Positions 39,082 to 39,240 of a stretch of DNA of 64,000 nucleotides are shown here, piece after piece. The stretch comes from an uncultured Alistipes sp. (GTDB lineage: Bacteria > Bacteroidota > Bacteroidia > Bacteroidales > Rikenellaceae), in NCBI GenBank assembly GCA_944321955.1, contig CALUNG010000009.1, positions 597 to 64,596 on the forward strand, written 5' to 3'. Position 1 is the first letter of the stretch. Each line of letters starts with the position of its first letter. The notes under the pieces were generated by a model. It did not search any database and was not told where the DNA came from. It worked only from the letters and a program-made list of their open reading frames with translations. The translations under genes were made by a program, and so were the position numbers.

Positions 39082-39240
39082 TTAATATGTTCCGTAATCC
39101 TTTTCTTCGAGGTCGTCGACAACCCCCGTGTTGCTCACTGCAAATCCCGACTCGATCTCGATGTCGAATCGTGTGATTGCCGGTGCGGAGTATGCGTTCG
39201 ACATGCTCCGTGCCATTTTTGTCTCAGAGATTCTTTTCAT
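39082..39240 (-). CDS. Small 52-aa peptide upstream of pilin gene (below ORF-track cutoff)
   Basis: MKRISETKMARSMSNAYSAPAITRFDIEIESGFAVSNTGVVDDLEEKDYGTY*; lies between the promoter and the pilin ATG (13-nt gap), with an A/T-rich initiation region. Confidence 0.7.
   Translation of the reverse strand: MKRISETKMARSMSNAYSAPAITRFDIEIESGFAVSNTGVVDDLEEKDYGTY

Follow-up and report, generated by a model that had tools for sequence, protein, structure and literature searches.

In a 64,000-nt stretch of DNA from an uncultured Alistipes sp. (contig CALUNG010000009.1, positions 597 to 64,596; hereafter the window), a peptide gene of 52 codons lies on the minus strand directly ahead of a gene for a large lipoprotein (its partner), and we concluded that it is the first cistron of an autonomous two-gene cassette with its own Bacteroidetes-type promoter. 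Sequence comparison gives high confidence that the peptide open reading frame (ORF) is a real protein-coding gene under purifying selection, with its N-terminal 16 codons unconstrained. By the same kind of comparison the peptide belongs to no described family, and the genes that it leads encode a single subfamily of pilin-like multidomain lipoproteins, found in Alistipes and in certain uncultured Bacteroidales. The novelty is that loci of type-V-pilin-like surface lipoproteins have a novel, obligate small leading gene; the family and the linkage are solid, and the function discussed below is inferred only. The coordinates of all features are collected in Table 1.

The peptide ORF runs from an ATG at 39240 to a TAA at 39084-39082, and on re-reading of the sequence its 52-aa product, MKRISETKMARSMSNAYSAPAITRFDIEIESGFAVSNTGVVDDLEEKDYGTY, is identical to the one quoted in a preliminary description of this DNA, which had been made from the letters alone. 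The surrounding 8 kb are overlapped by 79 ORFs of at least 30 aa, so the length of this one is unremarkable here and its status as a gene has to be judged from conservation. When the window was compared with its orthologues in the loci L026, L028 and L030, which had been retrieved via the big protein or the motif, the ratio of non-synonymous to synonymous substitution rates (dN/dS) was 0.15-0.17 for codons 17-52 and about 0.8 for the first 16 codons. Four other lineage pairs, compared starting at the conserved Tyr, gave values of 0.13-0.39, while in more distant pairs the synonymous sites are saturated and the amino-acid identity is 44-64%. Synonymous variants among L002-L011 were left uncounted as evidence, because these loci were fetched by exact protein identity and the variants are hence synonymous by construction. 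The 19 distinct members of the family are free of frameshifts with the exception of the rare variant P0094, a frameshifted 60-aa form of the P0093 allele that is either a sequencing error or a pseudogene. The dN/dS and frameshift comparisons, which the preliminary description had named as a possible refutation, thus bear out a real conserved gene. Its label of a hidden gene did not hold, since the ORF is called on 17 public contigs and is present in NCBI-derived protein sets, though without a name. Met9 and Met13, both inside the unconstrained N-terminal part, are possible alternative starts; some gene callers place the start of the peptide at one or the other, and judging from the sequence either may be the true one.

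Relatives of the peptide are few and small. When 1.84 billion representative proteins were scanned in full with HMMER, four small relatives of 49-52 aa with 46-54% identity were returned. With the peptide alignment as profile, a search of public proteins yielded seven called small proteins, and a metagenome scan with a narrow peptide alignment found two loci; no relatives were present in viral contigs in three scans. Two repeat proteins from the HMMER scan (P0089 and P0090) were judged to be low-complexity chance matches. In all, 19 distinct family peptides of 41-63 aa were assembled, including the later-found L036 member, and none has a match in Pfam, NCBIfam, PDB, PHROGs or PADLOC. The statement that such peptides recur and have no known function is therefore upheld: 19 were found, none of them matching a described family. 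Common to the 19 are Y-x-x-P-x-[ILMF], [IV]-x-[IVTA]-E-x-G-F-A-x-[ST] and an acidic tail with D-Y-x(0-2)-G-x-x-aromatic, and the core pattern is maintained in 19/19. In an alignment of 11 sequences Y17, P20, E30, G32 and F33 of the core are invariant and A34 is nearly so. The motif first proposed, YxxP..I..F.I.IE..F..S, was right in part: Y17, P20, [ILMF]22, [ILV]27, E30, G32, F33, A34 and S/T36 are conserved, but F25 and I29 are not.

The conserved core of the window peptide (codons 17-36) is flanked by a variable N-terminal part and an acidic tail. When subfamilies are compared the tail is specific to the lineage; a D-Y-x(0-2)-G-x-x-aromatic or Leu recurs at its C-terminal end or close to it. 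Between the window and L026 the tail shows a single difference in 16 residues. In the window peptide no segment is hydrophobic (the Kyte-Doolittle maximum over 11 residues is 0.96) and the isoelectric point (pI) is 4.6, values which agree with the earlier reading of an acidic tail and no signal peptide. Among the 18 members analysed, the Kyte-Doolittle 11-residue window maximum does not exceed 1.65 and the pI is 4.05-4.6, and none has a Sec, lipoprotein or twin-arginine translocation (Tat) signal or a transmembrane segment. Modelled alone in AlphaFold2 (AF2), the peptide has no secondary structure and a predicted local distance difference test score (pLDDT) of 61, and it is predicted to be disordered on its own. 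The alternation of hydrophobic and charged residues around the invariant E-x-G-F suggests a strand-turn-strand that might form upon binding.

The linkage to the partner is strict. A lipoprotein gene lies 6-41 nt downstream on the same strand in 15/15 cassette lineages, and a peptide is present upstream in every partner homologue that was fetched via the big protein and keeps the N-terminal module (L012-L015, L017, L028-L037), a pairing which persists down to 29-34% partner identity. No peptide is found upstream of a Firmicute match that shares only aa 445-628 of the partner. When the fetched loci and the window (336 kb) were scanned in six frames with the family hidden Markov model (HMM), matches at E<=2e-5 occurred only directly upstream of big-gene homologues, and the next best match anywhere had E=0.29. 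On gene neighbourhood, a check suggested at the outset, family matches lie only beside the lipoprotein partner and all 15 lineages are paired. Other neighbours are unrelated between lineages: fabD and a ROK regulator in the window, MscS in L018, GH43/GH31 in L020, TPR and AMP-binding genes in L033/L017, and Mur ligase, RecQ and aminotransferase genes in further loci. Since the flanking genes differ by lineage, the peptide and the lipoprotein form an autonomous two-gene cassette. No such peptide was found by Pfam and the family HMM at the two adjoining Mfa_like_1 genes of the window (34175-36031 and 36059-36916), and most cassettes lie outside any pilus locus. The proposal that these peptides recur upstream of fimbrillin-like genes therefore stands for genes with a type-V-pilin-like N-module but not for fimbrillins generally, the two Mfa_like_1 neighbours being without one. 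Similarly, the suggested place as a component of type V pilus loci has to be restricted, the peptide being paired with a gene for a pilin-like N-module and most cassettes lying in no such locus.

The cassette appears to be transcribed from its own promoter. A Bacteroidetes-type -7 box stands 76 nt upstream of the peptide ATG in the window, and a TAnnTTTG box is present 48-131 nt upstream of the peptide ATG in 12/21 cassette sequences as well as in L036. The sequence ATAGTAnnTTTG around the -7 box is kept in the window, L001 and L026, the remaining spacer being 51-62% identical. From the position of the box, conserved in orthologues, it follows that the leader ahead of the big gene measures about 230 nt, as had been described (with the box at 39309-39316). 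The RNA of this leader is not unusual: its folding minimum free energy (MFE) has a z-score of -0.74, it matches no Rfam family at E<=1, the start codon of the partner is not regularly buried in RNA structure across cassettes, and the region of the peptide start codon is less structured than the transcript average in most members. A structured RNA leader or riboswitch was rejected on the first three of these grounds. A fusion of peptide and partner by frameshifting was also rejected, given that both the length of the intercistronic spacer (6-41 nt in 15 cassettes measured) and the relative frame of the two ORFs vary. A terminator-like hairpin of 13 bp followed by a T-run (39182-39214, plus strand) is antisense to the 5' part of the peptide ORF, and two of its pairs turn into A-C mismatches on the mRNA strand; it is probably due to chance, given the poor conservation of the ORF there. 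Chicken-gut metatranscriptomes contain transcripts of the partner gene, but just one short contig covers the peptide ORF. That contig, from a bird-gut library presumed to be RNA, spans 38983-39220 and crosses the peptide/partner junction; it carries four third-position synonymous changes and one non-synonymous change (K47M) at a variable position. The sequencing runs that hold window sequence are chicken, bird and wastewater metagenomes, and the source appears to be an Alistipes-like inhabitant of the bird or chicken gut.

The partner is a 692-aa protein that begins MRNLYKSSMLVAVAAMAFAGC, a lipoprotein signal, with the signal sequence MRNLYKSSMLVAVAAMAFAG-C21; the lipobox Cys is at residue 18-22 in the partners of all cassettes, and the canonical lipobox pattern is found in 13/15. 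The acidic C-A-K-D-N after the lipobox resembles a Bacteroidetes surface-export signal, and the partner is probably a Sec-exported, surface-exposed lipoprotein, as far as such signals tell. Its prosegment ends in E-T-D-T-R51|T in the window; R51/T52 is conserved in the partner alignment (A1), and R or K stands at the equivalent place in all partners. Gingipain cleavage at Arg46 of FimA and Arg49 of Mfa1 opens the pilin groove (PMC8512630). The predicted cleavage position of the partner at Arg51 matches these two sites. An AF2 model built with 24 homologues is all-beta with a pLDDT of 77, and in a Foldseek search its N-terminal ~300 residues matched 3sy6, the BF1861 fimbrial protein of Bacteroides fragilis (E 2e-7, probability 1.00, TM-score on the target 0.58), and 3t2l (BF1858, TM 0.53). 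The pLDDT of this module is mostly ~62-85 with two loops below 50, so that the fold match, to the two-domain beta-sandwich of pilins, is of moderate quality. Pfam sees only the BACON domain in the window partner and gives no match to Mfa_like_1 (PF13149), and hhalign found nothing between the partner and the 285-aa Mfa_like_1 protein encoded nearby. The partners in L032 and L018 match Mfa_like_1 over nearly its full length, with scores (25.7 and 21.9 bits, respectively) that stay below the cut-off of 27.

Beyond the pilin-like module follow ~360 residues of other domains, and no free C-terminal donor strands are present. Invariant columns are concentrated in aa 335-455, with many Tyr, Gly, Asn and Trp positions (e.g. 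YYAL...RLDAV.FEYNGTD and FAFY), and this most conserved part is probably a ligand-binding domain. The C-terminal parts in other cassettes are GDSL-lipase-like with M26_N/GLUG, BspA-type leucine-rich repeat (LRR), fn3, or BACON_2/LTD. The description of 36990-39068 as a pilin is thus valid for the N-terminal module only, which is pilin-like by the 3sy6 and 3t2l matches; the protein has further domains and misses the Mfa_like_1 threshold. As in the type V pilins (FimA/Mfa1, Mfa_like_1 lipoproteins), there is a lipoprotein signal, a prosegment ending in Arg ~30 residues after the Cys, and a two-sandwich fold; unlike in these, more than 350 extra residues are present and most cassettes are outside pilus loci. 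The lack of free C-terminal donor strands is shared with the type V tip subunits Mfa3/Mfa4, and the domain architecture is closer to that of a tip subunit, or of an enzyme or adhesin on display, than to that of a stalk pilin. The closest partner homologues are labelled Alistipes.

Comparison of strains indicates that the core and the tail of the peptide have different relations to the partner. When window 36990-39068 (minus strand) was compared with L002, L007, L026, L028 and L030, the promoter, the peptide and the first ~230 nt of the big gene were ~100% identical within the window species, and likewise within its sister group, whereas the pilin-like body was 59-75% identical at the nucleotide level and blocks further downstream switched between ~100% and 50-65%. 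Such a mosaic is typical of a surface antigen diversified by recombination, to judge from the sequences. A natural tail swap is found between L020 and L023. Their promoters and peptide codons 1-37 agree at 100%, and from there on the tail and the whole partner gene are replaced by unrelated sequence; the breakpoint at ~8110 is inside the peptide ORF, directly after the conserved core (...GFATSN). From the swap and the strain mosaic it follows that the core need not match the partner body, nor its signal or prosegment. As for the tail, it moves together with the partner, whether through co-adaptation or through linkage only.

What does the peptide do? The reading that we favour, tentatively and as a possibility still short of probable, is that it is an intracellular escort or adaptor dedicated to its partner. 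It would be made from the same mRNA immediately ahead of the partner, remain in the cytoplasm and serve the lipoprotein precursor. Its beta-hairpin-prone core (strand, E-x-G-F turn, strand) would fold on binding, via strand addition to a target common to all cassettes, which could be either a host translation or export component or an invariant part of the pilin-like module, and the tail would be matched to the individual partner. The outcome would be control over the amount of partner that is made and kept export-competent. The low pI and the lack of a hydrophobic stretch in all members analysed were counted as support for a cytoplasmic peptide. Also taken in its favour were the obligate pairing, with a separate peptide for each cassette of a head-to-head pair, the lack of structure in the lone peptide (for folding on binding), the L020/L023 swap and the strain mosaic (for a shared target of the core and a tail tied to the partner), and the absence of signs of an RNA element. 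Several points weigh against this proposal. We know of no precedent for a 50-aa escort of a Sec lipoprotein, and the other fimbrillin-like lipoproteins in the window manage without a peptide. The co-travel of the tail may be linkage only, with the conserved core DNA serving as crossover point, and the invariance of the core is equally compatible with a regulatory target. In addition, hhalign detected no similarity between the peptide and any partner segment, and the RNA evidence for co-transcription is the one short contig mentioned above, with the RNA status of its library guessed. It is more doubtful that the peptide is a hitherto unrecognised accessory component of type-V-pilin-like surface proteins, namely a free-standing strand or hairpin which binds the pilin-like module, whether as a groove cap or donor or as a chaperone of the precursor; if true, it would be the first chaperone-like factor for this pilin class, with a tail exchanged together with the partner at cassette recombination.

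A regulatory peptide is also possible, and we hold it with some doubt. It could act in cis, as a nascent or just-released chain, through termination-reinitiation coupling or ribosome pausing, or in trans by signalling which cassette is on and coordinating paralogous cassettes, in which case it would resemble the leading UpxY/UpxZ genes of the phase-variable capsule operons of Bacteroides fragilis. The peptide gene is always the first cistron at a short spacer with the frame not fixed, a cis role needs one copy per cassette, as is seen, and raises no compartment problem, and the core is independent of the partner. As with SecM-secA, MifM-yidC2 and RAPP-type arrest peptides, small upstream ORFs that control a secretion-related gene, there is a conserved small first cistron, here ahead of the gene for an exported protein. 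The peptide differs from them in that it has no known arrest motif, its conserved core is 16-29 residues from the stop, and the C-termini differ between subfamilies (DYGTY, DGLTL, GINF, DGEFE, EQDW); monitors of the SecM/MifM type are themselves exported or membrane-inserted, which the peptide is not, and the downstream gene here encodes cargo, not machinery. No mRNA structure links the two cistrons. For a trans role, head-to-head pairs of cassettes (see below) share one promoter within inverted repeats, an inverton-like setting known for such regulators, and UpxY/UpxZ of B. fragilis and PapB/PapI of E. coli are likewise first genes of surface-structure cassettes. The peptide is, however, much smaller than these, acidic, disordered and without homology to them, DNA binding is unlikely for an acidic peptide, the window cassette lacks an inverton, and the six head-to-head contigs are in a single orientation. 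Last, a chance ORF in the 5' leader or a non-functional remnant is scarcely credible: ORFs of such size are common here, but purifying selection is seen in five lineage comparisons, the motifs persist where identity is down to 30-45% and synonymous sites are saturated, and the frame is intact in all 19 members except for the P0094 variant.

The preliminary description had put forward a donor-strand mimic or cap for the pilin groove. In this reading an exported strand or hairpin would fill the groove of the pilin-like module after the predicted prosegment cut at Arg51, and would complete or cap a pilin-like protein without a stalk subunit of its own. This is unlikely, although the partner has a pilin-like fold, a prosegment and the conserved R/K at the predicted cleavage position, most cassettes have no nearby pilin gene to donate a strand, the alternating hydrophobic/charged core followed by a Gly turn gives two strands like an A1'/A2' donor, and the peptide alone is disordered in AF2. 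Free C-terminal peptides of FimA and Mfa1 reportedly block polymerization, and accessory factors such as chaperones for the biogenesis of type V fimbriae are stated to be unknown (PMC8512630). A groove-filling amphipathic strand is established for the chaperone-usher proteins PapD/FimC and for the synthetic C-terminal FimA/Mfa1 blocking peptides, and the peptide core looks suited to such a role. Known donor strands are, however, parts of exported proteins or of signal-bearing periplasmic chaperones, whereas the peptide has no export signal. Signal peptides, lipoboxes, twin-arginine motifs and conserved double-glycine leaders are absent from all members, and the cassette has no linked transporter gene, which leaves a compartment problem, the partner being Sec-exported. 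There is no sequence similarity to the C-termini of Mfa_like_1 proteins or to any Pfam/PDB entry, and the Mfa_like_1 match of the L032 partner reaches profile position 239/246, so the module has last strands of its own. Still less probable is a precursor of a ribosomally synthesized and post-translationally modified peptide (RiPP) or of a cofactor, in which the core would be the recognition strand for a maturase encoded elsewhere (e.g. radical SAM/SPASM) and the aromatic C-terminal end would be modified or released. Like lasso (YxxP), PqqA and MftA precursors, the peptide is small and acidic, with an aromatic-x-x-P-x-hydrophobic motif plus strand, resembling leader strands bound by a RiPP recognition element (RRE), and a conserved aromatic C-terminus, G-x-Y/F, that recalls MftA. 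Two radical SAM (rSAM)/SPASM genes directly upstream in L035-L037, one of them TIGR04133 at 567 bits, would fit. Such neighbours are present in only 1/15 cassette lineages, there with a terminator-like hairpin and a separate promoter, and absent from the 64-kb window and the other loci; no RRE, cyclase or maturase is found in 14/15 lineages, and strict pairing with a lipoprotein, not with an enzyme, is left unexplained. The suggestion that YxxP might mark a lasso leader fails as well. The motif of such leaders is Y-x-x-P-x-L-x3-G-x5-T; the peptide has Y17-x-x-P20-x-I22, but D26 instead of Gly and no conserved Thr, it matches no NCBIfam precursor family, and no RRE (B1), protease or cyclase genes for a lasso peptide are in the window or any cassette neighbourhood. 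Two further candidates were dropped. A double-glycine leader (GG-Bacteroidales/bacteriocin) has no NCBIfam match, GG is present in few members and the N-terminal part is 7-16 aa and unconstrained; a copy of the partner prosegment (SNAYSAPAITR vs ANAYAPETDTR in the window) fails in other cassettes and is a coincidence.

In gut and oral Bacteroidia, type V pilins and fimbrillin-like lipoproteins rank with the most abundant proteins of the cell surface, and to our knowledge no small signal-less peptide gene belongs to a described type V locus. The present family is a new one of small proteins, linked one-to-one with a subfamily of pilin-like, strain-hypervariable surface lipoproteins, some of them possibly phase-variable, and a gene of 50 codons is a genetically simple handle on the production, export or regulation of such lipoproteins. 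Should the peptide bind the pilin-like module, this would point to a means of blocking or capping type V assembly; were its gene no more than a coupling or regulatory ORF, this gut commensal would still offer a clean case of a small ORF that is conserved and functional.

Table 1. Coordinates of the cassette features in the window, and of the inverted repeats between head-to-head cassettes of other loci.
Feature	Coordinates	Strand	Basis or remark
Small-protein gene, 52 codons + stop	39082..39240	(-)	encodes MKRISETKMARSMSNAYSAPAITRFDIEIESGFAVSNTGVVDDLEEKDYGTY; sequence read and ORF list
Variable N-terminal 16 codons	39193..39240	(-)	dN/dS ~0.8; length and sequence differ across family
Conserved core, codons 17-36, Y-S-A-P-A-I-T-R-F-D-I-E-I-E-S-G-F-A-V-S	39133..39192	(-)	family alignment
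Acidic tail, codons 37-52, ending D-Y-G-T-Y	39085..39132	(-)	constrained within lineages
Bacteroidetes-type -7 promoter box TAccTTTG	39309..39316	(-)	76 nt upstream of peptide ATG
Predicted 5' untranslated region of bicistronic transcript	39241..39302	(-)	inferred from -7 box position
Intercistronic spacer, 13 nt	39069..39081	(-)	sequence read
Partner gene, 692-aa surface lipoprotein (probable): pilin-like N-module, conserved middle domain, BACON, C-terminal domain	36990..39068	(-)	
Lipoprotein signal peptide, lipobox F-A-G-C21, then C-A-K-D-N	39006..39068	(-)	sequence
Prosegment Ala22-Arg51, predicted strand 37-42, conserved E-T-x-x-T-R|T	38916..39005	(-)	AF2 and alignment
Type-V-pilin-like (fimbrillin-like) module, ~aa 60-330, hypervariable between strains	38079..38891	(-)	Foldseek
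Most conserved partner domain, aa 335-455	37704..38066	(-)	invariant columns concentrated; pLDDT 84-91; no Pfam match
BACON domain, aa 496-548	37425..37583	(-)	Pfam PF13004, 26.4 bits vs cut-off 25
Inverted repeats, 19 nt, 100%	L020 7803-7821 / 7980-7998		
Inverted repeats, 21 nt, 90%	L031 1109-1129 / 1339-1359		
Inverted repeats, 29 nt, 83%	L032 996-1024 / 1258-1286		

Two cassettes stand head to head in three lineages, each with its own peptide. The intervening 158-233 nt are flanked by inverted repeats, which in L020 and L032 are just upstream of both peptide start codons (2 and 11 nt in L020), and the repeat-flanked segment holds the only TAnnTTTG promoter box between the two cassettes. 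On its sequence this segment looks like an inverton that would switch one promoter between two cassettes; all six head-to-head contigs (L020-L025) are in one orientation, and the window's own cassette has no inverton. In a single lineage two tandem rSAM/SPASM genes lie directly upstream of the cassette on the same strand (1-1681 in L035/L036, 2-1009 in L037). One is TIGR04133 'rSAM_w_lipo' (567 bits against a cut-off of 425), its neighbour a SPASM protein of another kind. The rSAM gene is separated from the peptide gene by a terminator-like hairpin and by a TAacTTTG promoter that belongs to the cassette, and from this arrangement the rSAM/SPASM genes and the cassette are read as separate transcription units; rSAM genes were found neither in the 64-kb window nor in any other cassette locus. 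Next to the cassette of the window, a gene for a 618-aa lipoprotein (34175-36031, plus strand) is convergent to it and lies beside the 285-aa Mfa_like_1 gene (36059-36916). It encodes an Mfa_like_1 N-module fused to a Mac-1/IdeS-like cysteine protease domain (PF09028, E 3e-22), and from this domain content a pilin scaffold may here display a protease that cleaves immunoglobulins.

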